Of a stretch of DNA of 37,772 nucleotides, positions 1 to 36,610 are shown piece after piece. The DNA lies in IMG/VR virus record IMGVR_UViG_2563366960_000009, positions 1 to 37,772 of that record; one strand, written 5' to 3'. This stretch comes from a virus (taxonomy: Duplodnaviria > Heunggongvirae > Uroviricota > Caudoviricetes). Both the position numbers and the translations under genes were made by a program. Every line of letters begins with the position of its first letter. The first letter of the stretch is position 1. The notes under the pieces were generated by a model. That model had not been told where the DNA came from. It searched no databases and saw only the letters and a list, made by a program, of their open reading frames with translations.

Positions 1-1005
1 TTAATCCCCCGTGGACACTGCGTGGACACTCACGCCACCTTTCAGCGGATTAAGGGCCACCGCATCCTGCAGGTAATCCGGTGCAAAATGTGCATATGCC
101 ATTGTTTGCTGAATGGTTGCGTGACCAAGAATCTTCTGAAGTGCAATAATGTTTCCTCCGTTCATCACAAAATGGCTGGCGAACGTATGCCGCAGCACAT
201 GTGCAGCCTGGCCTTTTGGCAAATCGGGCTTAACTCTTTTCAGCGCCAGACAGAATTCCCGGTACTTCACCTCAAACAAGCTCCCTGTTTCTCTGGTTCT
301 GATCGCCTCACAAACCGCCTGCGAAATTGGCACCGTTCTCTTCCGGCCATTTTTGGTTTCAAGAAACGTTACACGGTTATGAACTATCTGTTCACCACGA
401 AGCTTACAAGCTTCACTCCAGCGCGCCCCTGTGCTTAAACACAAAAGCGCAACACGCCAGTAGTCGCCCTCCAGTGTATCGAGCAATAGCGCTACTTCCT
501 TCTGGGACAGGAAAGCCATCTCTCGTGGGGATACATAAAGAATAGAAATCCCCCTTACCGGATGCTCTGCATCCCAGAGGCCTATTTTCTTCAGTACGGT
601 AAACATTCCGGATAACCGATTCATGTATCTGTTAGCAGATGACGGTTTCAATCCATCAGCTATCTTTTGAGAACGCCACGCGATAATTTTCAGCTTATCA
701 AGATCCACAGCCTGCATATCAGCGCCAAGCTCATTGATTATGTTGCGCAGTTGTTTTCGGTCTTCTTCCGCCTTACGCCTGTGCTGGCCGTGATACATCC
801 ACCACAACTCAAGCAAATCATTTAGCGTTCGACGATCACGGTAGCCCTGTATATATTCCCGCTTTTCAGCGTTCGCCATGATGTAGCGTTCAGTGGCCAC
901 CGCTACCGATTTTTTGTCAAATACCTTACGCACGCGCTTTCCCTTGCGTCCGTTCGGCCTGATGTCCAGCAAATAACGACCATCTTCGAGCTTCTTAATC
1001 GACAT
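1..1005 (-). CDS. int: Phage integrase, tyrosine recombinase (P2 Int-like)
   Basis: ORF 1..1020 on the minus strand; the first codon in the track is a non-ATG start, so the ATG at 1005 is preferred (MSIKKLEDGRY...). C-terminal LRHTFASH...GHATIQQTMAYAH resembles the tyrosine-recombinase catalytic region. Position at the prophage end next to the repressor matches P2 organisation. Confidence 0.9.
   Translation of the reverse strand: MSIKKLEDGRYLLDIRPNGRKGKRVRKVFDKKSVAVATERYIMANAEKREYIQGYRDRRTLNDLLELWWMYHGQHRRKAEEDRKQLRNIINELGADMQAVDLDKLKIIAWRSQKIADGLKPSSANRYMNRLSGMFTVLKKIGLWDAEHPVRGISILYVSPREMAFLSQKEVALLLDTLEGDYWRVALLCLSTGARWSEACKLRGEQIVHNRVTFLETKNGRKRTVPISQAVCEAIRTRETGSLFEVKYREFCLALKRVKPDLPKGQAAHVLRHTFASHFVMNGGNIIALQKILGHATIQQTMAYAHFAPDYLQDAVALNPLKGGVSVHAVSTGD
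11..29. repeat. Putative attL core: gtggacactgcgtggacac, direct-repeat partner of 36592..36610
   Basis: A 19-bp sequence recurs at 36592..36610 with one mismatch (14 bp perfect, cactgcgtggacac). It overlaps the 3' end of int, as is common for att cores. Confidence 0.5.
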
Positions 1006-1101
1006 TGCGAAGCCCTCCAATGAACCGCTCTACAATTTCTCCAGCCTCTTTCCAGCAATAATCAGACCAGACAAAAAGCAGGTCTAACCAGTTTTCTGGC
1101 C

Positions 1102-1689
1102 TCAGCGGGGTAATTTTTGTTTTGTTTCGGTTGAACTCTGATCGCCCTCCAAACTGGAGAAGCCATCAAGAGAGAGAGGCGGAGCAATCTGCCCCGTCGC
1201 AGCATTAGTTTGATTAAACATTACCCAATCCGAATACTTCCGAAAACGGGGATGATTCAAAATCAGGAGTAGCGTTTCTCCAGGTATCATTCTTCCCAAT
1301 ATTTCATAATTTTTGAGATTGTTTTGAGATACCCCTGTCACCTCTTCCATCGCTCTACGCGACAATCCCTCTGCCTCTCGAATCAGGCGGAGTTTTTCTC
1401 CAAGCTCAGATACCACTTCAGATCCACTACCAGCCAATGGCGTGGGTTCAATTTGCCCATTATCTGGAGACACTTGCCCCGTCATAAGCCAAAGCGCGTA
1501 TTTTTTGAACCTATCAACCTGTAAAACTCGCTCAACCAACTCTGCTCTAGCAGGCTGATGACCTGTTTCATATTTCTGAATAGTATTAAGTGGAATCCCT
1601 GTAATATCAGAGAATTGACGTCTGCTTAACTCTTCCGCCTCCCTCATTCTCATGAGTCTTTGCGAATAGTCTATTGACACGTTTCTCAT
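1102..1689 (-). CDS. Immunity repressor (CI/C-like) with two tandem XRE-type helix-turn-helix segments
   Basis: Two similar segments, LSRRQFSDITGIPLNTIQKYETG and LSRRAMEEVTGVSQNNLKNYEILG, look like HTH motifs. ATG at 1689 has an AGGAG ribosome-binding site upstream; the track's 1737 start is a TTG. Divergent from the cox-like gene. Confidence 0.7.
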   Translation of the reverse strand: MRNVSIDYSQRLMRMREAEELSRRQFSDITGIPLNTIQKYETGHQPARAELVERVLQVDRFKKYALWLMTGQVSPDNGQIEPTPLAGSGSEVVSELGEKLRLIREAEGLSRRAMEEVTGVSQNNLKNYEILGRMIPGETLLLILNHPRFRKYSDWVMFNQTNAATGQIAPPLSLDGFSSLEGDQSSTETKQKLPR

Positions 1690-1741
1690 GTGAGAAATAT
1701 ACTCCTTTCTAAATTGAGAAATGCAAGAACAACTCAAATAG

Positions 1742-1779
1742 CCAAAATAAGCCTATATAAGCCATTTTGGGCCATTTGG
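1742..1779. promoter_or_regulatory. Putative operator in the lysis-lysogeny switch region: inverted repeat CCAAAAT/ATTTTGG plus direct repeats GCCATTTGG
   Basis: Read directly: ccaaaataagcctatataagccattttgggccatttgg lies between the divergent repressor and cox-like starts. Confidence 0.4.
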
Positions 1780-1801
1780 ACGAATTAAGGAGATTACCAC
1801 A

Positions 1802-2089
1802 ATGAGCGAATCAGAGCTTGAGGGGTTCATTCAGGTAGCAACATATCCACTTGAAGCGGTGCCATATCAACTATTTGCCAAGATGATTGGTCGCAAAGAA
1901 TCAACCGTCAGAACCATGATTGACGCTGCAAAGTTACCAACGATTGACTTTGTGAAACCAGGTTCAGTGAAGACGCGAGCATCAGAAAACTGGGTATATC
2001 TGCCAGCATTTAACGCAGGTATGCGCAAAGCATTTTTTGATCAGCCGAAAGAGCGCCGCGACGCATGGTTGCTCTGGCTGGGTCTTTGA
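1802..2089 (+). CDS. Cox/Apl-like excisionase and transcriptional regulator (first early gene)
   Basis: 95-aa ORF with AGGAG site, divergent from the repressor, in the position of P2 cox / 186 apl. Assignment is by synteny only. Confidence 0.45.
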   Translation: MSESELEGFIQVATYPLEAVPYQLFAKMIGRKESTVRTMIDAAKLPTIDFVKPGSVKTRASENWVYLPAFNAGMRKAFFDQPKERRDAWLLWLGL

Positions 2090-2100
2090 CGAGGATTTTT

Positions 2101-2442
2101 ATGAGACAACAACGTAATTCACGCTTTCGTAATGGTGCTGAACGCCACGCTAACCGTTTCGCTACCAGTGCATCACGCAGCAACATCCGCTACAGCCTGA
2201 GCGATACACACGCAACGCCGGATGGCTACCCTGTAAAACAAATCGGTGAGCATGCCTGGCTGATTGAAAAAGCTGGAATCGTGGTCCACAAATGCCCACG
2301 CAATCCGTTTACCGGAAACCGCATTTTTGCATTGAGCTGCGGCGACAATCAGTTCGGGCAGGATTTCACATTATACGAAGCACTACGCACGGTTGATCGC
2401 CTGCTTCGTGGGCAAAGTTTTATTAAACAGGCTGATTTATAA
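2101..2442 (+). CDS. Early-operon hypothetical protein
   Basis: ORF 2065..2442, ATG at 2101; co-directional early gene block. Confidence 0.5.
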   Translation: MRQQRNSRFRNGAERHANRFATSASRSNIRYSLSDTHATPDGYPVKQIGEHAWLIEKAGIVVHKCPRNPFTGNRIFALSCGDNQFGQDFTLYEALRTVDRLLRGQSFIKQADL

Positions 2443-2452
2443 CAGGTGCTTT

Positions 2453-2731
2453 ATGACCAAAGAGCATGCACAAGGTGTATTTATCCGTTTTATTGATTTT
2501 CGCGGTGAACTGTTATTACGCGCATCGGCTATTGATGCTGTAGTCCCGGCAGCAAAAGATGTGGCTACTTACCTTTATCTGAACGGCACGCGATTGTTTG
2601 TGGAACTTCCGTACCAGACCGTGCGCGAAATTATTAGCGAAGCTGAAAAAGCACGTCAGGTTAATGGCGATGAACCCTATATCGAAATTATCTGCATGGA
2701 TTCAGAAGCTGAAATTCAAAAGGCAGATTAA
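2453..2731 (+). CDS. Early-operon hypothetical protein
   Basis: In-frame ATG at 2453 within ORF 2393..2731 (MTKEHAQGV...); tightly packed with neighbours. Confidence 0.5.
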   Translation: MTKEHAQGVFIRFIDFRGELLLRASAIDAVVPAAKDVATYLYLNGTRLFVELPYQTVREIISEAEKARQVNGDEPYIEIICMDSEAEIQKAD

Positions 2732-2742
2732 AGGGCGTTGCG

Positions 2743-2985
2743 ATGGATAAAGAATATAAAACTCTCGTCAATAAAGCACCTGAGCGCTTTCATTTTCGCA
2801 TAAGCGCATCAGGCACTCATGCTGAGCTCGCAGCCCGAGAGTCATTGACCAGGGCCATCAAGAGTATATACGACACAGCTTTTTACATTGACGACCCGGA
2901 CGCACTCGACGAGCTTTCCATTCTCGTCTGCGCCGCAGAAAACGGGCATCACATTGAACCGTATAACCTGGAGAGTATCGCATGA
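2743..2985 (+). CDS. Early-operon hypothetical protein
   Basis: 80-aa ORF, co-directional, short intergenic gaps. Confidence 0.5.
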   Translation: MDKEYKTLVNKAPERFHFRISASGTHAELAARESLTRAIKSIYDTAFYIDDPDALDELSILVCAAENGHHIEPYNLESIA

Positions 2986-3187
2986 GCATATTTATCTCAT
3001 GGCTTGTTCTGATTATTTCGGTGACCAGTGCCATTGGAATTATGCGAATTATTCATTCAGTGAAAAAGATTGAGCGTTTTTTCTCTGACGAATAACAGCA
3101 CAAGTAAAACACCGGATTAAATAAGAAAACCTGAAAATTATCCGCACTCGCGGAGGTATTCGTACATCCAAATAACGGAGAAAGAAA

Positions 3188-3556
3188 ATGAACGCAAAAA
3201 CCGAAGACACCCTTATCTCTCTGAAAATGTTATCCGCGATGGAGCGTGAAATGCACGAGCGAGCAACAAAGGTAGGCGCTCACATTCTCAGCGTTCATGC
3301 ACTGATGGTAGCCGGCGTCATAGAAAATGCCGCCGAGCTCATCGAGGAGCAACACAAGGAAATTAGCGACCTTAAAGCTCAGCTCGCAAACGTAACATCT
3401 GCATCCGACAACAAAGGGAGAGCCGTTCGCCTGGCCAACATGGATGCTTGCATTTATGTAATCGTGGGTGAAAACCCGGACCTTTTCCTTCTGAGACGAC
3501 TAACCGAAGACAGGGCATTTGAAGTCCACAAGTCCGAAGTGACCTTCATTAGCTGA
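3188..3556 (+). CDS. Early-operon hypothetical protein
   Basis: 122-aa ORF with GGAG site upstream. Confidence 0.5.
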   Translation: MNAKTEDTLISLKMLSAMEREMHERATKVGAHILSVHALMVAGVIENAAELIEEQHKEISDLKAQLANVTSASDNKGRAVRLANMDACIYVIVGENPDLFLLRRLTEDRAFEVHKSEVTFIS

Positions 3557-3567
3557 CGGGCGATGCA

Positions 3568-3897
3568 ATGGAAAAGCTGAAATACCACATGACTCTGATG
3601 AGTCACATTCTGAAAAGCGCAAGTGGCTTTTATGTATACCCGTTCAGCCCTTCATGGGATTCGGAGCTACAGCAGCTACTGAATGAAGGCATTCTCATCG
3701 CAACGAGCAAGTACAACGCGATTTTTCATCACAACGGCAACGTCGTTGAAGTATGGATTGCTAATCGCTGGTACGGCTACGGCTGGCTGAACCGCGTTAA
3801 CGGACGCGAGACTGACACCCCTTGCACCCGCCCACGCTTTCGCACCATGTACCGCCTGCATCAAATGGTGCAGGCCTTCCAGGCTAAGGAAACGTAA
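3568..3897 (+). CDS. Early-operon hypothetical protein
   Basis: 109-aa ORF; its stop overlaps the next start. Confidence 0.5.
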   Translation: MEKLKYHMTLMSHILKSASGFYVYPFSPSWDSELQQLLNEGILIATSKYNAIFHHNGNVVEVWIANRWYGYGWLNRVNGRETDTPCTRPRFRTMYRLHQMVQAFQAKET

Positions 3898-4100
3898 TGG
3901 CAATTAAGCGATTTACCGTCGTTCGTTTCACTTCCAGAGGACGTGAATACGAAGTTGACGAACGGCTGATTAAAACGCTCGACCGTCACCGTTCGCAACC
4001 TGACGCGCATCACATTTATCTCACTGACGACACTTACTTCTGCGCCACCAACGTGGTGCAGGTGAATCTTATCAGACAGGTACAGGAGTCACGCAGATGA
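3897..4100 (+). CDS. Early-operon hypothetical small protein
   Basis: 67-aa ORF, translationally coupled to neighbours. Confidence 0.45.
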   Translation: MAIKRFTVVRFTSRGREYEVDERLIKTLDRHRSQPDAHHIYLTDDTYFCATNVVQVNLIRQVQESRR

Positions 4101-4638: not shown

Positions 4639-4649
4639 AGGACCGCGAC

Positions 4650-4853
4650 ATGAACAAAAAGACCTGGTTTCGCGCATACATGTGGGCGCTGGTATGCGTC
4701 CTCGTCTCTCTCATTCTGTATGCAGGACTACTCCCCCGAATGATTTCATCAGACAGCTCCTTCCTGGTATTGCTGGGAATTTTCATTGCCATGCTGTACC
4801 CGGCAGGCGTTGTTCGCCTTTTCAGTAAGTACATCAAGGAAATCAAACAATGA
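4650..4853 (+). CDS. Small two-helix membrane protein, partner of the SPFH lipoprotein
   Basis: 67 aa with two hydrophobic helices (WALVCVLVSLILYAGLL and FLVLLGIFIAMLYPAGVV); stop overlaps the ATG of the next gene (ATGA). Confidence 0.55.
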   Translation: MNKKTWFRAYMWALVCVLVSLILYAGLLPRMISSDSSFLVLLGIFIAMLYPAGVVRLFSKYIKEIKQ

Positions 4854-5680
4854 AGAAATTCAAACTCTTTCAGATTCTCCCGCTTTTTGCCGCCATCCTG
4901 CTGGTTGGTTGCGATCGCGTTGAGCCAGGTAATGTGGGCATCAAAGTCAACAAACTGGGCGACGACAAAGGCGTCGGTGAAGTGGTTGGCGTTGGCCGCT
5001 ACTGGACAGGCTGGAATACAGAGGTTTACATCTTCCCGACCTTCAAACAAATGAAGACTTACGATGAGCCGTTCAACTTCCAGATGAGTGACGGCACAAC
5101 CATCGGCTATCACATCGGCGTGGCCTACAAAGTTGATCCATCCAAAGTTACCACGGTGTTTCAGACCTACCGCAAAGGCGTGGACGACATTACCGACACT
5201 GACCTGCGCCAGAAGATCGCCGATGCACTCAACCGACTGGCCAGCAAAATGACCACCGATAAGTTTATCGACGGTGGTAAGTCTGAACTGCTGGATTCAG
5301 CACTTAAAGATATTCAGGAAGAGATGACCCCCATCGGTATTCAGGTCATGAGCCTCTCTTATGTCGGTAAACCGGAATATCCGCCAACCGTTATCGACAG
5401 CATTAACGCCAAAGTCACGGCAAACCAGAAAACCCTGCAACGCGAACAGGAAGTCAAGCAACGCGAAGCAGAAGCCAACATGTTGCGCGCAGAAGCTGCC
5501 GGACAGGCCGATGCCATTCGCACAAAAGCCCAGGCTGAAGCCGACGCCATTCGTTTACGCGGCGAAGCTCTGCGCCAGAATCCCGGTGTTATGGAGCTGG
5601 AAGCGATCAACAAATGGAACGGCACGCTGCCGCAATACATGACCAGTAACACCGCTGTTCCGTTCGTTCCCGTGAAGTAA
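4850..5680 (+). CDS. SPFH/band-7 (prohibitin/stomatin-like) lipoprotein
   Basis: 276 aa. N-terminal signal peptide with lipobox LLVGC. C-terminal Ala/Glu/Arg/Gln-rich coiled-coil (QREQEVKQREAEANMLRAEAAGQADAIRTKAQAEADAIRLRGEALRQNP) typical of SPFH proteins. Confidence 0.7.
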   Translation: MKKFKLFQILPLFAAILLVGCDRVEPGNVGIKVNKLGDDKGVGEVVGVGRYWTGWNTEVYIFPTFKQMKTYDEPFNFQMSDGTTIGYHIGVAYKVDPSKVTTVFQTYRKGVDDITDTDLRQKIADALNRLASKMTTDKFIDGGKSELLDSALKDIQEEMTPIGIQVMSLSYVGKPEYPPTVIDSINAKVTANQKTLQREQEVKQREAEANMLRAEAAGQADAIRTKAQAEADAIRLRGEALRQNPGVMELEAINKWNGTLPQYMTSNTAVPFVPVK

Positions 5681-5842
5681 TGACACCCGGCCAGTGCAAA
5701 CCGCTGGCCGGAGCAGTATCAGGATTTTTTAGTATGCCGTTCTCACAAAAAAACCGCTTGCCATGCCGCAATCAGTCAGGTTACATTTTCGCTGCACCTC
5801 ATAAAACGGGTGCCGGGTTTCGCAGCCTGCTGACTACAAGAG

Positions 5843-5874
5843 CGCACAACCGCGCCAGCGGTTTTTTTGTGCGT
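5843..5874 (+). terminator. Putative intrinsic terminator (GC stem followed by a 7-T run) inside a 370-bp non-coding region
   Basis: gcgcacaaccgcgccagcggtttttttgtgcg: stem aaccgc/gcggtt then TTTTTTT. Confidence 0.35.
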
Positions 5875-6047
5875 ACTGTATTGCCACGTTTTTTTCGCGT
5901 CAGAATTATGGCGGGGCGTACGGGGCCGACTTCGGTCGGGCCGGGATCTCTTGTAGCCGGTACTGCGAACCTCGTACGTCTCGCCACCCACAGTTTCGCA
6001 GCTCTGGATGGTGAGTTTTCACAACTTACTACAAGAGGCCACATATC

Positions 6048-6278
6048 ATGGCAAACAGCAAACAGCACCGCGCTATCGCGGAGCGTCGCCACATCCAGAC
6101 TGAAATCGACCGCAGACTCACCCGCGCTGCACACATCGCCTTTATCATGCAATCCAACGCATTGCACAGGCTCAACAGTACTATTTCAGCCGACTACTGC
6201 GCCGCTGTATTCAGCTATCTGGCGGAAGACCTCCTGTCTCTTCAGGATCTCATCCAGCAGCAAAACAAACTCCATTAA
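6048..6278 (+). CDS. Hypothetical protein upstream of the replication gene
   Basis: 76-aa ORF with ATG start. Confidence 0.4.
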   Translation: MANSKQHRAIAERRHIQTEIDRRLTRAAHIAFIMQSNALHRLNSTISADYCAAVFSYLAEDLLSLQDLIQQQNKLH

Positions 6279-6350
6279 TTCCTGTTCCGGGCCTTTCCTG
6301 CACCTTGCGGCGGGAGGCCTTCGCACATCTGTAACAAGAGGATTGCCGCA

Positions 6351-6716
6351 ATGATTCTCGCCAACGACTTTCTTGAATACCTGCTCAACACAGAGCGTGA
6401 TCTTGCCGCTCGCGTACGTGATCGTTATGACATGTATCTGAAATCCCTGCCTGTACCGCAGCTCGCTGACGGAAAAATTGTTATTGATGGTCGCTACATG
6501 ATTGACAGCCACGAGGGGAATTACAGGCTTTACCGCATTGAAGCCGGCACCCCGTCCGTTATTGGCATTTACCAGCGCCCATCCTCTGCGATCGTCGATG
6601 TGATTGCCGACAGCATCCGCATCACACACCACCATGCCGACACAGAAGACACTGTGCTGGAGATTCAGCGGCTGGCTGCCGTTTGCCGTGACACTCTGAA
6701 CGGAATGACGAAGTAA
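6351..6716 (+). CDS. Hypothetical protein immediately upstream of A (position of P2 B / 186 CP8x genes)
   Basis: 121-aa ORF ending 7 bp before the A start. Confidence 0.5.
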   Translation: MILANDFLEYLLNTERDLAARVRDRYDMYLKSLPVPQLADGKIVIDGRYMIDSHEGNYRLYRIEAGTPSVIGIYQRPSSAIVDVIADSIRITHHHADTEDTVLEIQRLAAVCRDTLNGMTK

Positions 6717-6722
6717 ATCAGT

Positions 6723-9621: not shown

Positions 9622-10581
9622 ATGAAAATTTGTATCGACGACGGCTCCACCAACATCAAGCTGGCATGGACTGAGAACGGCGAACACCGCAACGCCATCA
9701 GCCCGAACAGCTTCAAGTCGGAATGGTCTGCGCCGTTCGGTGGCTCGCAGCCTGCGAACTACATGCTTGATGGCGTGCGCTATGGTTTTGATCCGGTCAG
9801 CGATCGCTTTGTCCAGACGACCGACACGCAATACCAGTACAGCGATGTGAATGTAATCGCCATTCACCACGCGCTGGTCAAATCAGGCATCACGCCACAG
9901 GAGGTGGATGTGGTTGTCACCCTGCCACTGAGCGAGTATTTCGACACAAACGCCCAGCCGGATATGACCAACATCAACCGCAAAAAAGCGAACGTTATGC
10001 GCCCGGTGGAGTATCAGAACAGTGAGGCATTCACTATCCGTAACGTGCGGGTTATGCCTGAATCCATTCCGGCTGGCTTTAAAGCACTGGCTGACATGAG
10101 TCCGTTTGAATCCCTGCTGATTGTGGATTTGGGCGGAACCACGCTGGATGTGGCAAAGGTTCAGGGGCAACTGGCAGGTATCAGCCAGGTGTTTTGCGAT
10201 CCACACGTAGGCGTTTCTCTGATGGCCGATGCCGTGCTGTCGGTGATGGCCACCAACGGTATGCGCACCAGTCACCACATCGCCAATACCATTATCGAAC
10301 ATCGCCACGATGAAGCCTGGCTGCGCCAGCACATCCACAATGACGCGCATTACGCCAGCCTGATGGCAGTTATTCGTGAAAAGGAGGAAACACTGAAACA
10401 ACGCGTGATCCGCGCGCTGGCGGGTTTTTCGGGTTACGGGCGGGTGATGGTTGTAGGTGGAGGAGCGGAGATTGTGGCACCCGCTATCCGCGAAGCCTGC
10501 GGAGTTAATGCGACTTTCATCGCGGACGGGGTGCCACAATTTGCTCTGGTTAATGGGCTGTACGCAATGGACAAGGAGTAA
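9622..10581 (+). CDS. parM: ParM/StbA-like actin-family partition ATPase
   Basis: 319 aa. N-terminus MKICIDDGSTNIKLAW closely resembles plasmid R1 ParM (..FIDDGSTNIKLQW, from memory); later LLIVDLGGTTLDV and VMVVGGGAEIV match actin-fold phosphate-binding motifs. Confidence 0.8.
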   Translation: MKICIDDGSTNIKLAWTENGEHRNAISPNSFKSEWSAPFGGSQPANYMLDGVRYGFDPVSDRFVQTTDTQYQYSDVNVIAIHHALVKSGITPQEVDVVVTLPLSEYFDTNAQPDMTNINRKKANVMRPVEYQNSEAFTIRNVRVMPESIPAGFKALADMSPFESLLIVDLGGTTLDVAKVQGQLAGISQVFCDPHVGVSLMADAVLSVMATNGMRTSHHIANTIIEHRHDEAWLRQHIHNDAHYASLMAVIREKEETLKQRVIRALAGFSGYGRVMVVGGGAEIVAPAIREACGVNATFIADGVPQFALVNGLYAMDKE

Positions 10582-10585
10582 ATCA

Positions 10586-10897
10586 ATGACGACACCAACC
10601 AGACGGATAAGTTTCTATCTGAAGCCCGCCGCCGTCAAGAACGAAGGTGAAGCATGCGCCTGGCTGGACAGCCTTACACCAGAAGCGCGCAAAAGCGGCC
10701 AACGCGTGGCTTTTCTGGCCGGGCTGGCACTTCTGAAAATGAATCCGGCAGAGGCTTACCGACTGGCTGCATGGGCTGATGATGAAGCGTTATCAGTGAC
10801 ACAAACCAGGACAGAACGCCCCGCGTCACAGCCAGTATCAACCGCACAGATAACCAGTCAGATGGCCGGAAATATCCGGGCGTTATTTCCCGAATAA
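10586..10897 (+). CDS. parR: ParR-like centromere-binding adaptor
   Basis: 103 aa directly after parM. RRISFYLKP...LDSLTPEARKSGQRVAFLAGLALL and the C-terminal NIRALFPE align by eye with R1 ParR (RRTIAFKLNP...LDSIPQGERSRLNRAALTAGLALY...LRSLFPKE, from memory). Confidence 0.7.
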   Translation: MTTPTRRISFYLKPAAVKNEGEACAWLDSLTPEARKSGQRVAFLAGLALLKMNPAEAYRLAAWADDEALSVTQTRTERPASQPVSTAQITSQMAGNIRALFPE

Positions 10898-11462: not shown

Positions 11463-11870
11463 TTAAATATAATCTTCTTCGTAGTCGCTGATTAATTCAT
11501 TGCCATAATCAGACAGCAATTTCAAAGCAAAGGTAACTTCCTCAAGGGTAGCTATCCCCATTGCTGAAAACACCGTTAATTTAACCAGCAGCAGGGAGTT
11601 TGAAAGTTCGGAAGAGTTCATCATTAAAAATATTGATGCAGCCTGAAAAGCTGTGCGTTTATTCCCATCATGAAAGGCATGAGCCTTGGCTATACCAATC
11701 AAATACATAGCAGCCAGAGCATGAATATCATCAACCCCTTCATAGTAGTGTAGTGTCCTGACGCGATTTAAAGCACCTTCAAGTAGCCCGTCATTGGCAT
11801 TTCCGCTCTGGGGTAAAGTTTCAGCATGGATACGTTCTACTTGTTCTTTTGACAAAAACACTATGTCCAT
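11463..11870 (-). CDS. doc: Doc-family (Fic fold) toxin
   Basis: 135 aa with the Doc motif HAFHDGNKRTA (HxFx[DN]GNKR); start overlaps the stop of the upstream antitoxin (ATGA). Confidence 0.8.
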   Translation of the reverse strand: MDIVFLSKEQVERIHAETLPQSGNANDGLLEGALNRVRTLHYYEGVDDIHALAAMYLIGIAKAHAFHDGNKRTAFQAASIFLMMNSSELSNSLLLVKLTVFSAMGIATLEEVTFALKLLSDYGNELISDYEEDYI

Positions 11871-12226
11871 CAGTTATCCTCAAGCTTTTTAATGATATCC
11901 GCATGTTTTTCTCTTGTACGCTTCATTGCATCTTCAAAAGACAATCCTTTTTTTCTCTGTGCGACAAGAGCTGGATGACGTTTTTCCAGATCTCTCACTG
12001 CATTTATTAAGAGTGGTTGCTTCATTTTGTTTATTTGATCCCGCAGTTTTTTGGTTTTGCCAAGGACAGCCCGTATTTCAGGACTAAGATCAGAACCAGC
12101 AAGAACAACATCCTTCCCTCCCTGCGCCGTGATAACGACACTGCCACCGGAAGAAAGGTAATCCAGAATTTCACTCAGGTTCTCACGAAATTCATCATCA
12201 GTTACAGTTTTCATATTCATTTCCAT
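11870..12226 (-). CDS. phd: Phd/YefM-like antitoxin
   Basis: 118 aa immediately upstream of and translationally coupled to doc; N-terminal region is consistent with a Phd/YefM fold. Confidence 0.65.
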   Translation of the reverse strand: MEMNMKTVTDDEFRENLSEILDYLSSGGSVVITAQGGKDVVLAGSDLSPEIRAVLGKTKKLRDQINKMKQPLLINAVRDLEKRHPALVAQRKKGLSFEDAMKRTREKHADIIKKLEDN

Positions 12227-23963: not shown

Positions 23964-26744
23964 ATGAGCACGAAATTTAAAACCGTTATCACTACTGCCG
24001 GAGCCGCAAAGCTGGCAGCTGCCACTGTCCCCGGCGGGAAAAAAGTAACCCTGTCTGCAATGGCCGTGGGTGACGGTAATGGCAAATTGCCGGTGCCGGA
24101 TGCCGGTCAGACGAAACTGGTGCATGAGGTCTGGCGTCACGCTCTGAATAAAGTCAGCGTGGATAATAAGAATAAAAACTATATCGTGGCTGAACTGGTT
24201 GTACCGCCCGAAGTGGGCGGCTTCTGGATGCGTGAGCTTGGTCTGTATGACGATGCCGGAACACTGATTGCGGTCGCCAACATGGCGGAAAGCTATAAGC
24301 CTGAACTGGCTGAAGGCTCCGGGCGTGCGCAGACCTGCCGCATGGTTATTATTGTCAGTAACGTGGCGTCCGTTGAGCTGAGTATTGATGCCAGCGCAGT
24401 GATGGCGACGCAGGATTACGTCGATGACAAAATCGCAGAACATGAGCAGTCCCGCCGCCATCCTGACGCCACGCTGACAGAAAAAGGTTTTACTCAGTTA
24501 AGCAGTGCAACAAACAGCACCAGTGAAAAGCTGGCGGCAACGCCAAAAGCGGTCAAGGCAGCAAATGACAACGCAAATTCACGTCTGGCGAAAAATCAGA
24601 ACGGTGCAGATATCCAGGATAAATCAGCTTTTCTGGACAATATTAGTGTTACCAGCCTGACGTTTATGAAAAACAACGGCGAAATGCCGGTTGATGCTGA
24701 TCTGAATACATTTGGTCCTGTTAAGGCTTATTCAGGTATCTGGTCTAAAGCAACGTCCACCAACGCAACACTGGAGAAAAATTTCCCGGAAGATAATGCT
24801 GTCGGTGTGCTTGAGGTTTTTGCTGGCGGCAATTTTGCAGGCACGCAACGCTATACCACACGTGACGGAAATTTGTATATCCGCAAACTCATTGGAACAT
24901 GGAATGGTAATGATGGACCATGGGGAGCATGGCGCCATGTTCAGGCTGTAACGCGTGCTCTAAGTACGACCATTGACCTTAACTCTCTCGGTGGCGCAGA
25001 ACATTTAGGTCTATGGAGAAACAGCAGTTCAGCAATAGCTTCTTTTGAACGACATTACCCCGAGCAGGGAAGAGACGCGCAGGGCATTCTGGAAATTTTC
25101 GAAGGTGGGCTATATGGACGCACACAGCGTTATACAACCCGTAACGGGACTATGTATATTCGCGGCCTGACAGCCAAATGGGATGCAGAAAATCCACAGT
25201 GGGAAGACTGGATCCAAATTGGTTATCAGACCAGTAGTACCTTCTATGAGGATGACCTGGATGATTTGATGTCTCCGGGTATTTACAGTGTGACAGGCAA
25301 AGCGACCCACACCCCAATCCAGGGGCAGTCTGGTTTTCTGGAAGTCATCAGGCGCAAGGATGGTGTCTATGTTTTGCAACGTTACACGACCACAGGAACC
25401 AGCGCAGCTACAAAAGACCGTTTATATGAGCGAGTGTTTCTTGGTGGCTCATTTAACGCGTGGGGGGAGTGGCGACAGATTTATAACTCAAACTCTTTGC
25501 CGTTAGAGTTGGGTATCGGTGGCGCAGTGGCAAAACTCACCAGCCTGGACTGGCAGACATACGATTTTGTGCCGGGCAGTCTGATAACCGTTCGGCTGGA
25601 TAACATGACCAACATTCCCGACGGTATGGACTGGGGCGTCATTGATGGCAACCTGATAAACATCGCAGTTGGTCCGAGTGATGATTCCGGTACGGGACGC
25701 TCAATGCATGTATGGCGCAGCACTGTAAGTAAGGCCAACTACCGCTTTTTTATGGTGCGTATTTCAGGAAATCCCGGAAGCCGCACGATTACAGCAAGAC
25801 GAGTACCAATCATTGACGAAGCCCAGACATGGGGCGCGAAACAGACATTCAGTGCTGGCCTTTCTGGTGAACTGTCCGGCAATGCGGCGACAGCAACAAA
25901 GCTGAAAACAGCCCGTAAAATTAATAACGTTTTGTTTGATGGAACATCAGATATTAACCTGACGCCGAAAAATATTGGTGCATTGCCAATAACGGGAGGA
26001 ACTCTTACTGGCGGTTTAACGGCTGATGGCGAGATTATTTCCAAATCGGCGAATGGTCTGCGTATTGCCTATGGCAACTATGGATTCTTTATCCGAAACG
26101 ATGGTTCAAACACATACTTCATGTTGACCAATTCGGGAGACAGCCTGGGAACATGGAGTAGTTTAAGGCCGTTTGCCATTAATAACGCCAATGGCGATGT
26201 TTCTATCGGTAATGGACTCAATGTTACTGGTGATATAGGAACCAATGCTTGGGTATATGCAAATCGTTTGGCAATTAATAGCAGTAGCGGCATGTGGATA
26301 AATATGCGTGACCAGAATGTTATTTTCGGACGTAATGCGGTATCCACCGATGGTGCTCAGGCATTGTTACGTCAGGACCATGCTGATCGCAAATTTATGA
26401 TTGGTGGTCTGGGGAATAAGCAATTTGGCATCTACATGATTAATAATTCAAGGACAGAAAATGGCACCGATGGTCAGGCGTACATGGATAATAACGGGAA
26501 TTGGCTTTGCGGTGCGCAAGTTATTCCCGGCAATTATGGTAATTTTGACTCACGCTATGTGAGAGATGTCAGACTTGGCACACGTGTTGTTCAGACCATG
26601 CAAAGAGGCGTGATGTATGAGAAATCAGGCCATGTAATTACTGGGCTTGGCATTGTCGGCGAAGTTGATGGCGACGATCCGGCAGTATTCAGACCAATAC
26701 AAAAGTTAATTAACGGAACGTGGTACAACGTGTCACAGGTGTAA
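23964..26744 (+). CDS. Tail fibre protein (P2 gpH-like) with three tandem internal repeats and a divergent distal region
   Basis: N-terminus MSTKFKTVITTAGAAKLAAA... is the conserved P2 H baseplate-attachment region. 926 aa is longer than P2 H (about 670 aa). Confidence 0.85.
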   Translation: MSTKFKTVITTAGAAKLAAATVPGGKKVTLSAMAVGDGNGKLPVPDAGQTKLVHEVWRHALNKVSVDNKNKNYIVAELVVPPEVGGFWMRELGLYDDAGTLIAVANMAESYKPELAEGSGRAQTCRMVIIVSNVASVELSIDASAVMATQDYVDDKIAEHEQSRRHPDATLTEKGFTQLSSATNSTSEKLAATPKAVKAANDNANSRLAKNQNGADIQDKSAFLDNISVTSLTFMKNNGEMPVDADLNTFGPVKAYSGIWSKATSTNATLEKNFPEDNAVGVLEVFAGGNFAGTQRYTTRDGNLYIRKLIGTWNGNDGPWGAWRHVQAVTRALSTTIDLNSLGGAEHLGLWRNSSSAIASFERHYPEQGRDAQGILEIFEGGLYGRTQRYTTRNGTMYIRGLTAKWDAENPQWEDWIQIGYQTSSTFYEDDLDDLMSPGIYSVTGKATHTPIQGQSGFLEVIRRKDGVYVLQRYTTTGTSAATKDRLYERVFLGGSFNAWGEWRQIYNSNSLPLELGIGGAVAKLTSLDWQTYDFVPGSLITVRLDNMTNIPDGMDWGVIDGNLINIAVGPSDDSGTGRSMHVWRSTVSKANYRFFMVRISGNPGSRTITARRVPIIDEAQTWGAKQTFSAGLSGELSGNAATATKLKTARKINNVLFDGTSDINLTPKNIGALPITGGTLTGGLTADGEIISKSANGLRIAYGNYGFFIRNDGSNTYFMLTNSGDSLGTWSSLRPFAINNANGDVSIGNGLNVTGDIGTNAWVYANRLAINSSSGMWINMRDQNVIFGRNAVSTDGAQALLRQDHADRKFMIGGLGNKQFGIYMINNSRTENGTDGQAYMDNNGNWLCGAQVIPGNYGNFDSRYVRDVRLGTRVVQTMQRGVMYEKSGHVITGLGIVGEVDGDDPAVFRPIQKLINGTWYNVSQV

Positions 26745-31363: not shown

Positions 31364-31418
31364 CAGTTGTCTCCTTTTCAGTCAGAGGCGACGCACTGCG
31401 CCGCCTGCATATTACTTA

Positions 31419-33115: not shown

Positions 33116-33272
33116 AGCTTCAGCCCCTTGTATCCGTTAAATGATTCGGCAACAATCATCACCCACCACGCGCGTAATCTCACCCCTGCGCCGTTCTCCC
33201 GACCCGGCGACAACAAAAAGCAGTAACCCCCTCCGCACGCACATGCGACCATGCCGCACAGGGAGGGAACAG

Positions 33273-34382
33273 ATGACCGATACCACCATGCAATTGCTCA
33301 GTCAGGGCACAGACCCCGTGAAAATGCCGGATTTTGATATTCTCGCGGAGGGTAAAACGCTGTCAGGCGTGGCAGAGCGCCTGATGAGCCTGTCACTGAC
33401 CGACAACCGGGGATTTGACGCGGACCAGCTCACCATCACGCTGGATGATGCGGATGGTCAGTTGCAGCTACCGCCACGGGGCGCGCGCCTGACGGTTCTC
33501 ATTGGCTGGAAAGGAGAACCGCTGACAGAAAAAGGCACTTACATTGTTGATGAAATCGCTCACGAAGGACCGCCGGACAGGCTGACTGTTTCAGCCAGAA
33601 GCGCAGATTTTCGGGATGAATTTAACGTTAAACGTGAGGTGTCCTGGCATGATGTGACCGTTGAGCGTGTGGTATCCGCCATCGCTCATCGGTATGGTCT
33701 GAAACCGCAAATCAGCGAAATGCTGATTGATATCGAAATCGACCACGCCGACCAGACCGAAGAAAGCGACATATCCTTCCTTACGCGCATGGCGGAAATG
33801 CTGGGCGCAATCACCACGGTAAAAAGCGGCAATCTGTTATTCATCATGCCAGGTGGTGGCGTGAACGCACAGGGCCAGCCGTTGCCCTCATTCGCCATTA
33901 CACGCAGCAGCGGCGATCGCCATCAGTTCCGCATTGCTGACCGCGAGGCGTATACGGGGGTACGCGCCTACTGGCTTGATCTTAATTACGGGAAAAAGAA
34001 AAAAGTCAGCGTGAAACGCCGTAAACCGCCAAAACCCAAAAAGGAGAAAAGCAGCAGCCGTGAAGGTGATTATATGGAAGGCGCGGAAGGCAATGTGTTT
34101 GTGTTACGCAAGACTTATCAGAACGAGCAGGCAGCAAGACGCGCAGCGGCGGCAAAGTGGCAGCAACTACAACGCGGAGCCGCATCATTCTCCATCACGC
34201 TGGCGCGTGGACGTGCAGAACTCTACCCCGAAATGCATGGCACGGTAACAGGATTTAAAAGCGAGATTGATAATCAGGACTGGATCATTGCAAAAGCCGA
34301 GCACACCATTGATAATAGCGGCTTTACCACGCAGCTTGAGCTTGAGGCAAAAATCCCGGAATGGATAGCGGAAACAGAGTGA
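33273..34382 (+). CDS. Tail protein D-like (late gene D)
   Basis: ATG at 33273 with GGGAGG site (the longer track ORF from 33141 is Pro/Arg-rich and lacks a site); about 370 aa; followed by ogr as in P2. Confidence 0.8.
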   Translation: MTDTTMQLLSQGTDPVKMPDFDILAEGKTLSGVAERLMSLSLTDNRGFDADQLTITLDDADGQLQLPPRGARLTVLIGWKGEPLTEKGTYIVDEIAHEGPPDRLTVSARSADFRDEFNVKREVSWHDVTVERVVSAIAHRYGLKPQISEMLIDIEIDHADQTEESDISFLTRMAEMLGAITTVKSGNLLFIMPGGGVNAQGQPLPSFAITRSSGDRHQFRIADREAYTGVRAYWLDLNYGKKKKVSVKRRKPPKPKKEKSSSREGDYMEGAEGNVFVLRKTYQNEQAARRAAAAKWQQLQRGAASFSITLARGRAELYPEMHGTVTGFKSEIDNQDWIIAKAEHTIDNSGFTTQLELEAKIPEWIAETE

Positions 34383-34422
34383 GCAACTTAGAATAGGCAG
34401 CACCACGTTAAGGGAGGTCGCT

Positions 34423-34683
34423 ATGTTCCGTTGTCCGCTTTGTGGCGCATCTGCCCGTATCCGCACCAGTCGTCCGGAAAATGATTCAAACACCGTGCGG
34501 CAAAAGTATTACCAGTGTAACAATCTGGAATGCGGCGTATGCTTCTCAACACTGGAAGCTTTCCATAAATTCACATCAAAACACGCCTCCGGCGTTCACT
34601 CTTCAGAAGGTATCCCGTGGCATGATCTGCCAGCTTCACACAGGGGAAACAATCAGATGAGTTTGCCTTTATCTCAGAATTAA
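34423..34683 (+). CDS. ogr: Ogr/Delta-type zinc-finger late-gene transcriptional activator
   Basis: MFRCPLCGASARIRTSR...YYQCNNLECGVCFSTLE resembles P2 Ogr (MFHCPLC...HQCQNVNCSATF, recalled); CxxC...CxxC zinc finger. Confidence 0.85.
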   Translation: MFRCPLCGASARIRTSRPENDSNTVRQKYYQCNNLECGVCFSTLEAFHKFTSKHASGVHSSEGIPWHDLPASHRGNNQMSLPLSQN

Positions 34684-34771
34684 CAGGCAGAATTGCCGGA
34701 GTAACAAAAAAGCGATAGATTACGTGCGGGTGCCTTTCGGCTGATGGTCGGAGGGAATACCCGAAGGCCAG

Positions 34772-34957
34772 ATGTGGAAAGGCCCCGAGTCAACTTTAAC
34801 GTTAACCCGAGGCCCTAACCATCTACCCTTAGCAAGTGATAGGTTAGCGCCTCCCCGAAAAAGGAGCAAGCGCTATGTCGCAAAAATCGCTTACGGCCAT
34901 CACATTCTGCGTGACGGCAATCCTCATCATCTGGATGCTGCACGGTTCGCTGTGTGA
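34772..34957 (+). CDS. Possible mok-like overlapping reading frame of a hok-type locus
   Basis: 61-aa ORF starting about 100 bp upstream of the hok-like ATG and overlapping it in a different frame, as in hok/mok/sok loci. The protein itself has no recognisable features. Confidence 0.3.
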   Translation: MWKGPESTLTLTRGPNHLPLASDRLAPPRKRSKRYVAKIAYGHHILRDGNPHHLDAARFAV

Positions 34958-35015
34958 AATACGGATGAGCTTCTGGGGAGCGGAGTTTGCGGCGTTCTTA
35001 CAGTGTAAGCAGTAA
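34875..35015 (+). CDS. Hok/Gef-family type I toxin peptide
   Basis: 46 aa, below the ORF-track cutoff: MSQKSLTAITFCVTAILIIWMLHGSLCEIRMSFWGAEFAAFLQCKQ. N-terminal TM helix and the SLCEIR...AAF signature shared with Hok; AAGGAG site upstream. Confidence 0.6.
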   Translation: MSQKSLTAITFCVTAILIIWMLHGSLCEIRMSFWGAEFAAFLQCKQ

Positions 35016-35024
35016 GGAAACCGC

Positions 35025-35046
35025 GACGGGGGAGTAATCCCCCGTC
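35025..35046 (+). terminator. Perfect 9-bp stem-loop (gacggggga-gtaa-tcccccgtc) just after the hok-like stop
   Basis: Read directly; could be the 3' structural element of a hok mRNA or a terminator, though no U-tract follows. Confidence 0.4.
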
Positions 35047-35277
35047 AATCGGTTGCTAGGGTAAGGTCGATAAGGCACCCTATCTCACAGCTCTAAATGC
35101 AAAAATTCCATGAAACTGTGGGATTTTTGCATCACATACTGATACAGACCAGCCCTTCTATATGCCTCACTCTATACCAGCTAATCAATTGACACTTATC
35201 AATAAAAATAAATCTGATAAAATCAAAATGTTTTGTAACAAATATCAACTCGTATTAATCCAAAGGAGGCGGATTAC

Positions 35278-35610
35278 ATGGCATTAATCAAATGTCCTGA
35301 ATGCCAGAAAGAGGTGAGCGATTCAGCATTGTATTGCCCTGCTTGTGGTAAACAACTGCAAAAACTTAAGCGTTCATTTTTTGGACGGATCATTAAGTGG
35401 GTTTTTATATTATTTAATATTTTTATGATCTATACGCTTTTAGTTGGACTAGGAGGCACTAGTGAAATAATAAATAATGCCACATCCGATGCCGAAAAAG
35501 CCGGTGCAGTTATTGGTACAGGCTTAGGTTTAATTACCATTGGAAGCTTATGGGTTATTGGCGATATCATTATCGGAATTTTAGTATTTCTTACTAAACC
35601 AAAGGGATAA
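35278..35610 (+). CDS. Zinc-ribbon membrane protein (N-terminal CxxC-x10-CxxC, two transmembrane helices)
   Basis: 110 aa; CPECQKEVSDSALYCPACG then two long hydrophobic helices; AAGGAGG site; markedly AT-rich codon usage. Confidence 0.7.
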   Translation: MALIKCPECQKEVSDSALYCPACGKQLQKLKRSFFGRIIKWVFILFNIFMIYTLLVGLGGTSEIINNATSDAEKAGAVIGTGLGLITIGSLWVIGDIIIGILVFLTKPKG

Positions 35611-35614
35611 TAAA

Positions 35615-36508
35615 ATGAAAAATATAATTTTTTCTATAGGTGCATCATTTATATCAATTAGTGTACTGCCTGTTCACGCAGCAACTGAACATAAGAACTT
35701 CAATGCAGTACTCCAGTGCCGAGCAATAGAAAATAATAAAGACAGACTTTCTTGTTACGATAAGTCAATACAACCGACTCGAACGAAAGTTGCTGAAAAA
35801 TTCGAAAGCAGAGATCAATGCCCTGATGAGAAAGATGATGATAGACGTTTATCTTGTTATGATCGTTTCTTTTCTCCAACATTTACTCCATCTGTAAACT
35901 CAAAATCTAAAACGGAAAAGCCAGTAACAACAGAGGCTCAGCAACCAAATCTTTCTGAGATATCTAAATGTCGTGCAGAAAATGATAAAGAAGCCAGACT
36001 AAACTGCTACGATAAACTATTCCCACAGGATAAAATCGCTCAAGCTGAATCAAAATTAGAGAAAGCCACAGATGTAGGAAAATGGCACACATCCATTACT
36101 ACATCGCCAATTGATGATTCGAAAAATGTAATTTTATCGTTAGAAAGTGATGATTATATCAGAACTCCATTTGGAGAAGCGGTTACTCCTACTCTTTTTA
36201 TAGCTTGCCGAGAAAAGAAAACCGAAGTATTTCTTAGTTGGGATGTATATTTAGGCCTTGAACAAACCAGCATGCTTTATCGCCTTGATAAACAGAAAGC
36301 AGTTGAGCGAAACTGGCTAGTATCTACAGATACAAAGGCTGTTTTTTATAAAGGTAATGACATTGATTTCATCCGAAAACTAGCCAACTCAAGCAAAATG
36401 TATACAAAAATAACGCCTTATAATGAGAGCCCCGTAAGTGCAACTTTCAATTTAAACGGCCTGTCAAACGCGCTAAAACCGCTTCAAGCTGCTTGTAACT
36501 GGAAATAG
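35615..36508 (+). CDS. Secreted protein with three Cys-pair repeats and an uncharacterised C-terminal domain
   Basis: 297 aa; signal peptide ending VHA; repeats CRAIENNKDRLSCYDK, CPDEKDDDRRLSCYDR, CRAENDKEARLNCYDK; AT-rich; 4 bp downstream of the zinc-ribbon gene. Confidence 0.7.
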   Translation: MKNIIFSIGASFISISVLPVHAATEHKNFNAVLQCRAIENNKDRLSCYDKSIQPTRTKVAEKFESRDQCPDEKDDDRRLSCYDRFFSPTFTPSVNSKSKTEKPVTTEAQQPNLSEISKCRAENDKEARLNCYDKLFPQDKIAQAESKLEKATDVGKWHTSITTSPIDDSKNVILSLESDDYIRTPFGEAVTPTLFIACREKKTEVFLSWDVYLGLEQTSMLYRLDKQKAVERNWLVSTDTKAVFYKGNDIDFIRKLANSSKMYTKITPYNESPVSATFNLNGLSNALKPLQAACNWK

Positions 36509-36536
36509 TATTAAATCATGTGGCTTAGCCACAATC

Positions 36537-36580
36537 ACAGATAACACAAAGCCCGTGAAAACGGGCTTTGTGTTATCTGT
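36537..36580. repeat. 19-bp perfect inverted repeat (acagataacacaaagcccg-tgaaaa-cgggctttgtgttatctgt) after the cassette
   Basis: Read directly; no flanking U-tract on either strand; 12 bp from the right att repeat. Confidence 0.5.
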
Positions 36581-36591
36581 AACTCGAAAAT

Positions 36592-36610
36592 GTGGTCACT
36601 GCGTGGACAC
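36592..36610. repeat. Putative attR core: gtggtcactgcgtggacac, direct-repeat partner of 11..29
   Basis: 18 of 19 positions identical to 11..29. Confidence 0.5.

Follow-up and report, generated by a model that had tools for sequence, protein, structure and literature searches.

The 37,772-nucleotide stretch of DNA analysed here (the window) very probably represents a P2-like prophage of the PhiSM/P88 type (Xuanwuvirus) inserted in the 5' end of pdxB, with the 19-bp direct repeats near its two ends as the putative P and P' arm-type integrase-binding sites of its attachment apparatus. This repeat pair is an already known and ordinary kind of feature: it matches the arm sites of phage P2, and the crossover site lies elsewhere, in 20 bp at the start of pdxB. 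The assignment of the arm sites rests on homology to P2 sites taken from the annotation of NC_001895, the reference genome, and the comparisons below draw on 5,426 complete E. coli genomes and on GenBank phage records for examples of attP.

The terminal repeats and their likeness to P2 arm sites

The repeat occurs as an exact copy at 11-29 (GTGGACACTGCGTGGACAC) and with a single mismatch, A to T at the fifth base, at 36592-36610 (GTGGTCACTGCGTGGACAC). A search of both strands that tolerated up to 3 mismatches found no further copy in the window, and 100 dinucleotide-preserving shuffles gave none at all; the terminal direct repeat reported by the first-pass annotation is therefore real. The internal tandem that it described is likewise present: each 19-mer consists of two 8-mer units whose starts are 11 bp apart, namely GTGGACAC at 11-18 and 22-29 on the left, and GTGGTCAC at 36592-36599 followed by GTGGACAC at 36603-36610 on the right; the exact 8-mer GTGGACAC was found nowhere in the window outside the two 19-mers. 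As also proposed, the left copy lies in the 3' end of int, a gene on the minus strand (1..1005, stop codon at 1-3) encoding a P2-type tyrosine integrase of 334 aa with Pfam Int_N and Phage_integrase domains, where it encodes part of the C-terminal sequence ...SVHAVSTGD*. That the 19-mer is the sole long repeat pairing both ends holds within the window, because the window begins at the int stop codon without the real attL; the claim does not extend beyond it, as the real attL lies outside.

In the annotated attP of P2 (NC_001895) an Int P arm (24293-24320), an IHF region (24324-24357), the core (24356-24383), a Cox region (24399-24472) and an Int P' arm (24470-24496) follow one another. The P2 P arm, GATGTGGTCAATGTGTGGAC, aligns with a conserved block of the window, CTCGAAAATGTGGTCAYTGCGTGGACA (36583..36610), which contains the right 19-mer and is the putative P arm-type site, part of attR in the prophage. 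The P2 P' arm, TGTGGACACTGTGTGGACAC, lies 8 nt inside the 3' end of P2 int, and the putative P' arm-type site of the window (11..29, two GTGGACAC units, part of attL in the prophage) is likewise in the 3' end of its int; P2 TGTGGTCAATGTGTGGAC and TGTGGACACTGTGTGGACAC align with the window's 19-mers. The two phages agree further in that each arm is made up of a pair of direct TGGACA-type repeats spaced by about 11 bp, that SVHxVST is encoded by the P' arm, and that hairpin, P arm, IHF site and core succeed one another, the P' arm in turn overlapping int at its 3' end. Between the P arm and the core the window has a match to the IHF consensus (AATCAATAAATTA = WATCAANNNNTTR; 36632..36644, plus strand), a predicted binding site, and the segment AAATCCTTTTAnnTCAA aligns with the IHF-protected region 24324-24357 of P2. 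The arm consensus given for P2-type integrases is tgTGGaCa (PMC3448106), and all four units of the window (tGTGGTCA and three copies of cGTGGACA) fit it; the arrangement of two units per side with starts 11 bp apart is held in the reconstructed attP and in phage genomes.

The two systems differ in the core, which corresponds to pdxB codons 2-7 in the window and is AAAAAATAAGCCCGTGTAAGGGAGATT in P2, with a different host target; in the distance from core to P' arm, which at about 192 bp versus about 89 bp is some 100 bp longer in the window and, unlike that of P2, holds a phage-borne replacement start for pdxB; and in the interval between ogr and the P arm, with about 1.9 kb of cargo in the window versus a terminator only in P2.

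The integrase itself is 50% identical to P2 Int overall. Its N-terminus, MSIKKLEDGRYLLDIRP, aligns with P2 MAIKKLDDGRYEVDIRP, about 40 N-terminal residues resembling the arm-binding region of P2 Int, and the C-terminal SVHAVST aligns with P2 SVHTVST. Comparison of GRYLLDIR in the window with GRYEVDIR in P2 shows that Y11, D14 and R16 are identical; by their equal spacing they would correspond to the Y/D/R discriminator residues at alignment positions 16, 19 and 21 of PMC3448106.

We considered it doubtful in the extreme, though the least so of the alternatives, that the repeats are bound not by Int but by another phage protein, for instance the C repressor or the excisionase Cox. The phage does encode a Cox, 56% identical to that of P2, and directionality factors too bind direct repeats one helical turn apart (PMC7498355). 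However, the 19-mer motif misfits the cox-box consensus TTAAA(G/C)NC(A/C) and is absent from the Pe-Pc switch region, at which both proteins act, whereas it fits the arm consensus of P2-type integrases and aligns with P2 sites annotated as Int-bound. A search of the 182-bp interval on the P' side for Cox repeats, as k-mers shared with the Pe-Pc switch region, gave a result equalled by 11-15 of 200 shuffles, and the two one-mismatch matches of the P2 cox-box consensus (TTAAASNCM) in this interval were equalled by 91 of 500; neither scan located Cox sites there, which counts against a complete P2-like layout.

Slightly less credible still is that the right 19-mer is a functionless scar, left either by an older integrase gene of which a degraded 3' end would persist or by a tandem prophage. 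As the left copy is int coding sequence, one can imagine the second as a piece of a gene, but similarity to int ends with the 19-mer, and the same arrangement is present in P2, where the sites are annotated as bound by Int. Moreover, the right copy is near-invariant and fixed at 45 bp from the core in phages and prophages with four cargo sets, while the spacer varies: in an alignment of nine sequences with these four cargo sets, the arm block has 2 variable columns among 28 and the adjoining spacer 20 among 45 (Fisher p 6e-4, a value that overstates independence, the nine sequences being related by descent). The P' 19-mer is identical in the eight contigs and the related phage genomes examined, bar one C to A in Chuche, but it lies in coding sequence and its conservation is therefore not independent evidence.

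The crossover core and the empty site

The right boundary of the prophage is a 20-bp sequence, TTTTCATCAACAAGGATTTT (36656..36675), the attR copy of the att core, which is the reverse complement of pdxB codons 2-7 and has a single match in the window. The site is empty in about 5,100 of the 5,426 E. coli genomes, whose homology to the window begins at 36656, not at 36611, leaving 45 bp between it and the right 19-mer. K-12 has such an empty attB, in which pdxB directly neighbours flk and TTTTCATCAACAAGGATTTT occurs once. In BCE049, which is 100% identical to the window over 1-1100 and 36560-36700, TTTTCATCAACAAGGATTTT occurs exactly twice, 35.8 kb apart, at the pdxB-int and cargo-flk junctions. 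The same 20-mer is thus shared by the attB of K-12, attL and attR of BCE049 and the attP of phage Chuche. In all eight examined contigs with an identical Int the core lies 182 bp past the int stop codon and is followed by pdxB; one contig, DBFKVM010000003.1, is 100% identical to the window over the int region. Judging from relatives with identical int DNA, the attL of the window's own element would lie at about the same distance past the int stop codon, outside the window. The P arm, core and flk flank occur together in 312 of the 5,426 genomes, and 305 carry the window's int; an IMG/VR scan anchored on the core and P' flank, an anchor without bias towards the arm, returned two loci only.

Phage records provide the complementary picture of the undivided site. 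In the genomes of P88_4B11, Chuche and PhiSM the 19-mer, the core and the second 19-mer are contiguous with the same spacing, so that both repeats stand on one molecule, 257 bp apart, with the 20-bp core between them. Citrobacter phage PhiSM (OR565851) and Escherichia phage P88/P88_4B11 show 97-98% DNA identity to the window in int and about 200 bp downstream (97% for PhiSM), and PhiSM and P88_4B11 have identical 19-mers at the same positions and the same core. The att site of PhiSM was determined experimentally as the 17-bp sequence ATCCTTGTTGATGAAAA, 6 bp inside pdxB (Magaziner et al. 2019, PMC6456863). The whole of ATCCTTGTTGATGAAAA, in the 5' end of pdxB, is contained in TTTTCATCAACAAGGATTTT; the shared identity is 17 bp in the PhiSM paper versus 20 bp common to attB, attP, attL and attR here, and arm sites are not mentioned in the accessible text of that paper (PMC6456863).

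These comparisons reduce almost to nothing the probability that the 19-mers are themselves the attL and attR crossover cores and the ends of a 36.6-kb element, as the first-pass annotation had supposed from their being the only long direct repeat pairing both ends within the window and from the left copy adjoining int. A core is expected exactly at both host-prophage junctions, once in attB and once in the free phage genome. The right 19-mer falls 45 bp short of host homology, and the left one is kept from pdxB by the int stop codon, 182 bp of further phage DNA and the real core. No match to the 19-mer with up to 3 mismatches was found in the truA-mnmC region of K-12, which spans pdxB and flk, where the annotation had anticipated one repeat copy beside the flk-like gene and where one TTTTCATCAACAAGGATTTT stands instead. 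In free phage genomes both 19-mers flank a single, different core, and the experimentally determined site of PhiSM is also a different sequence (PMC6456863). The empty-site and phage-genome comparisons thus refute the 19-mer as att core; another repeat pair, TTTTCATCAACAAGGATTTT, bounds the element in related genomes, an outcome that the first-pass annotation had itself named as refuting. What survives of the earlier proposal is the association of the repeats with the attachment apparatus, probably as the two arm sites of attP, one of which ends up in attL and the other in attR. Equally little credence goes to chance or to coding constraint as the source of the similarity. Short repeats are common in 38 kb, and the Int C-terminus does limit variation in the left copy, but the shuffles gave no match at 3 mismatches, the right copy is non-coding yet conserved, and the pairing recurs in P2.

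Fate of pdxB at the junctions

Insertion leaves an orphaned native pdxB start at attR (36634..36678, minus strand), in which the GTG and six native codons run into phage DNA as a 14-codon ORF, VKILVDEKNDDLIY*. At attL in relatives with an identical Int, outside the window, AAGGAG is followed by a TTG that opens the frame LSETEKGL-KILVDENMPY... (the TTG is given as L by the translation tool and would be Met if it initiates), and gene callers give a 385-aa PdxB at this position. In these relatives a phage-borne TTG start with a Shine-Dalgarno sequence hence restores the pdxB frame at attL, as expected of a pdxB-integrating prophage of the PhiSM/P88 type; PhiSM lysogens are reported to grow on minimal medium (PMC6456863). 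About 300 E. coli genomes agree with the PhiSM experiment in that the insertions of this phage lineage lie in the first codons of pdxB and carry a replacement start codon with them.

Proposed mechanism and its bearing on prophage delimitation

In lambda-type heterobivalent integrase systems attP has the arm sites P1, P2 and P'1-3 together with sites for IHF, Xis and Fis; the integrase contacts distant arm sites through its N-terminal domain, and a bending protein brings these and the core together, a logic common to P2-type systems. P2-type attP differs in the consensus, number and layout of its arms, has one IHF site, and uses Cox for Xis. Based on the likeness to P2 we propose that the 19-mers would be bound, through their TGGACA-type units one helical turn apart, by the phage's tyrosine integrase, a heterobivalent enzyme, with its N-terminal domain. 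On the circular phage molecule the predicted order is cargo, hairpin, P arm with its 19-mer, a 45-bp spacer with the IHF site, the 20-bp core, a 192-bp P' arm region, the int stop codon and the second 19-mer in the 3' end of int. As in P2, IHF would bend the DNA so that Int molecules link the arm sites to the core in an intasome, with Cox probably in its P2 role, and strand exchange would take place within the 20 bp common to phage and pdxB. Integration would then part the arms, P' going to attL (11-29) and P to attR (36592-36610), and it is for this reason that the 19-mers look like terminal direct repeats.

Our current understanding of P2-type site-specific recombination is unchanged by this arrangement. 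Direct repeats at the termini of a prophage with a P2-type int beside them need not be att cores and may instead be arm sites. Taking them as limits puts both prophage ends in the wrong place; in this case the error is about 200 bp at the left end and 45-65 bp at the right. The real attL can also go unseen when the edge of a window coincides with a gene boundary, as it does here.

A variable cargo slot between ogr and attP

The last core P2-type gene before the cargo is an ogr/Delta-type late activator (34423..34683, plus strand; Pfam Ogr_Delta). It is followed by a Hok/Gef family toxin gene (34875..35015, plus strand; Pfam HOK_GEF) and an AT-rich cassette (35278..36508, plus strand) encoding a zinc-ribbon protein (35278-35610; Pfam Zn_Ribbon_1) and a VasI/TagO-like protein (35615-36508; Pfam VasI), GC being 0.32-0.39 at about 35100-36600 versus 0.50-0.58 around. 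The prophage includes both the hok locus and the cassette, as had been suggested earlier, because the true attR core lies still further right; free phage genomes likewise have cargo, 19-mer, core and int in one contiguous run. PADLOC, applied to the cargo proteins and to part of the early-region proteins, gave no hit to defence systems, and an Rfam search of 34300-36800 gave no match to hok/sok RNAs at gathering thresholds.

The cassette is closed by a strong hairpin (36535..36580, plus strand; -37 kcal/mol, z-score -9.4) directly upstream of the P arm. The equivalent position in P2 is occupied by the ogr/F-operon terminator (24265-24288), which adjoins the P arm; our scan for promoters and terminators did not call the hairpin of the window as one, since it lacks a run of T downstream.

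According to RefSeq/GenBank annotations, hok is present in all nine relatives considered (Z1323HEC0475, AVS0283, BCE049, P88_4B11, Chuche, ATCC 43896, AR_0085, M6 and GF60). The zinc-ribbon/VasI cassette is found in 240 of the 5,426 E. coli genomes and in phages PhiSM and P88_4B11, the cargo of PhiSM being the same as that of the window, and other relatives have different genes or none between ogr and attP, making this interval a variable cargo slot. It is a rather improbable but conceivable extension of these observations that the interval from hok to the arm block (36583) is a cassette-exchange hot spot, whose commonest occupant would be the zinc-ribbon and VasI/TagO-like pair as a lysogenic-conversion module (envelope or T6SS-related), and that the orphaned pdxB promoter, reading antisense through the P arm and on into the cassette, might make expression of the cargo, or excision, depend on its activity. 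What is observed is that the slot varies and where the orphaned start of pdxB lies; the pdxB promoter is assumed to stay with the start codon. Early-region genes of relatives also differ from those of the window's element, BCE049 being without about 1.1 kb of this region, and an SPFH/Band 7 gene is present in the window and not in BCE049.

Direct repeats and the integration site

The first-pass annotation took a pair of 19-bp direct repeats as the attL and attR cores delimiting a 36.6-kb element. The repeats are where it placed them (GTGGACACTGCGTGGACAC at 11-29 and GTGGTCACTGCGTGGACAC at 36592-36610), and a search of both strands allowing up to 3 mismatches recovered only these two matches in the window and 0 in shuffled sequences. 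Each copy is built from two 8-mers that begin 11 bp from one another, and the exact 8-mer GTGGACAC is absent elsewhere in the window. The repeat is very likely to be functional, but the pair is best explained, on the sequence comparisons described below, as P2-type Int arm sites and not as an att core. The left copy falls within the 3' end of the minus-strand integrase gene (int), whose stop codon occupies bases 1-3; hence the window starts exactly at the end of int, with nothing to its left.

Every complete E. coli genome has a match to the window's right end (36400-37772), in most cases only from about base 36656. With 36560-36700 as the query, matches were recovered in 5,425 of 5,426 complete E. 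coli genomes, at least 80% of the query being covered in only 312 of these; in genomes sampled from the remainder the alignment begins at query base 97, i.e. window base 36656. The pdxB (minus strand) and flk (plus strand) genes are neighbors in K-12, where the junction reads ...ggcatatTTTTCATCAACAAGGATTTTcacgtttg..., the corresponding right-end stretch of the window being ...tcatcatttTTTTCATCAACAAGGATTTTcacgtttg.... Over 1-1100 and 36560-36700 the window is matched at 100% identity by strain BCE049, in which int is followed by 182 bp of phage DNA, then by ...TTTTCATCAACAAGGATTTT... and then by the body of pdxB; this 20-mer is found exactly twice in the 44-kb BCE049 stretch, once per junction. 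All eight contigs selected for an Int protein exactly identical to that of the window likewise show an arm site in the int 3' end and the 20-mer 182 bp past the stop codon, followed by pdxB. The empty site, BCE049 and these contigs together imply that attB, attL and attR have TTTTCATCAACAAGGATTTT in common, which on the opposite strand constitutes pdxB codons 2-7. It is this 20-bp core, and not the 19-mer, that bounds the prophage, with one copy outside the window: the attR copy is at 36656-36675, and by extrapolation from the relatives the attL core of this element is expected at about -201 to -182, the element measuring about 36.86 kb from core to core. Both the type of site represented by the 19-mers and the pdxB target have been described before.

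Relationship to the arm sites of phage P2

The P2 reference record shows the order ogr, terminator, Int P arm, IHF, core, Cox and Int P' arm, with annotated features for the 'Int P arm' (24293-24320), IHF (24324-24357), the attP core (24356-24383), Cox (24399-24472) and the 'Int P' arm' (24470-24496), the last starting 8 nt within the 3' end of int. The right 19-mer of the window aligns with the P2 P arm gaTGTGGTCAaTGTGTGGAC and the left one with the P2 P' arm cTGTGGACACTGTGTGGACAC; the adjoining AAATCCTTTTAnnTCAA segment, which lies beneath the P2 IHF footprint, can be aligned too. The P2-type arm consensus tgTGGaCa (PMC3448106) is fitted by all 4 units of the window. The Int protein of the window is 50% identical to P2 Int, with a very similar N-terminus, and displays Y, D and R as in P2 Int, spaced like the arm-type discriminator positions of PMC3448106; we infer that they correspond to the residues numbered in that paper. 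Its C-terminal tail, for which the P' arm units code, is SVHAVST, matching SVHTVST in P2. A predicted IHF site with a perfect match to the consensus (AATCAATAAATTA, 36632-36644) is situated between the P arm and the core. Directly upstream of the P arm is a perfect, very stable hairpin (36535-36580; -37 kcal/mol, z-score -9.4), which is devoid of a run of T on either strand and occupies the place of the ogr/F-operon terminator in P2.

We aligned nine pdxB-type attP/attR sequences, which are flanked on the left by four different gene sets, namely zinc-ribbon and TagO; RES, zinc-ribbon and TagO; Com and methyltransferase; and nothing beyond hok. Homology across the differing cargo starts at 36583. 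In the arm block (36583-36610) 2 of 28 columns are variable, compared to 20 of 45 in the spacer (36611-36655) and 14 of 23 upstream (36560-36582); the difference between arm block and spacer (Fisher p = 6e-4) is indicative only, the sequences being related by descent.

The int of the window was found in five phage records at 92-98% identity, and the three examined in detail (P88_4B11, Chuche and PhiSM) have one common contiguous attP structure. In P88_4B11 and Chuche the cargo is followed by the hairpin, CTCGAAAATGTGGTCAyTGCGTGGACA, a 45-bp spacer and the core, and then by TAACCC and about 180 bp more, up to the stop codon of int and the second 19-mer. PhiSM, whose circular record was opened inside the core, has both 19-mers identical to those of the window, and likewise the same cargo. 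These phage genomes are equivalent to the excised junctions by which the 19-mers were to be checked as cores, and in them both 19-mers flank a single core, the P arm at a distance of 45 bp and the P' arm at 192 bp. P88_4B11 and the AVS0283 prophage contain a core variant TTTTCCTC... (TTTTCCTCAACAAGGATTTT; copies in the relatives' stretches L002 and L005). Because the TTTTCCTCAACAAGGATTTT variant of P88_4B11 is kept in the attR of AVS0283, this one attR suggests that strand exchange occurs to the right of core position 6.

By the paradigm of P2 and lambda, the four arm units would be bound by the N-terminal domain of Int and the P arm bent by IHF, with strand exchange inside the 20-bp core catalyzed by the core-binding and catalytic domains of Int, and Cox (1802-2089; 56% identical to P2 Cox) would act from the side of the P' arm to direct excision. 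A search for Cox boxes in the 182-bp P' arm interval did not locate them.

Consequences for pdxB

Magaziner et al. 2019 (PMC6456863) describe integration of PhiSM in E. coli K-12, as determined by random-primed PCR and Sanger sequencing, at a 17-bp att site (ATCCTTGTTGATGAAAA) 6 bp inside the pdxB 5' end. They also report that a TTG start and an AAGGAG Shine-Dalgarno sequence, both phage-borne, lead into pdxB, and that the lysogens grew on minimal medium. The 17-mer so reported is contained within the 20-mer core. The TTG and Shine-Dalgarno sequence are also present in the identical-Int relatives, yielding LSETEKGL-KILVDENMPY... (TTG is displayed as L by the translation tool and would be Met if it initiates), in agreement with the published PhiSM account. 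The native start codon is lost from pdxB on integration and phage DNA gives AAGGAG and TTG instead (L004 3799-3870, to the left of window base 1; L017-L024 3664-3710, all in relatives' own coordinates). At attL some gene callers predict a 385-aa PdxB from the TTG, and RefSeq PGAP one of 370 aa from the internal Met9. The native GTG start stays at attR (36634-36678, minus strand), presumably along with the native promoter, and reads into phage DNA as a 14-codon ORF, VKILVDEKNDDLIY*, pointing toward the IHF site and the P arm and, in antisense orientation, toward the cargo cassette.

Cargo genes and related elements

The hok-like locus and the AT-rich cassette do lie inside the prophage, as the first-pass annotation had it, being genes between ogr and the P arm and within the phage genome: hok (34875-35015), a zinc-ribbon gene (35278-35610) and a VasI/TagO-like gene (35615-36508). 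The cassette is present in 240 of 5,426 E. coli genomes, compared to 312 with this attR, and the content of the slot differs among other relatives. From hok to the arm block (35016-36582) the slot contains, depending on the relative, zinc-ribbon and VasI/TagO genes, an added RES-domain gene, Com with a DNA methyltransferase, or nothing (L002 3538-4365; L012 2032-2965; L006 2450-3392; L011 2815-3000), and in every variant homology restarts at window base 36583.

In E. coli GF60 (NZ_CP172185.1; L013 3009-3100) the P arm and spacer are the same, the core after them is degenerate (TTTTCATCAACAAtGATTT), and unrelated sequence on the serS side takes the place of flk; this locus could represent secondary-site integration or a rearrangement. 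Nine plasmid places were found among the matches to the right-end and cassette queries. The 142-kb ETEC plasmid NZ_LR883008.1 (L014 5664-8277) harbors a right-end remnant of this type of prophage, comprising a partial (pseudogene) CDS at the place of gene D, ogr, hok, zinc-ribbon, TagO (annotated as two separate CDSs), P arm and core, and homology ends with the end of the core.

This integrating P2-like phage encodes three plasmid-type stability modules, namely ParM with a small partner gene (9622-10897), Phd/Doc (11463-12226) and Hok (34875-35015). Two further proteins are encoded in its early region (4650-6354), one of the SPFH/Band 7 type (4850-5680) and one weakly Ash-like (5680-6354); their genes lie in a segment of about 1.1 kb that is absent from the BCE049 prophage, which is otherwise nearly identical to the element in the window.
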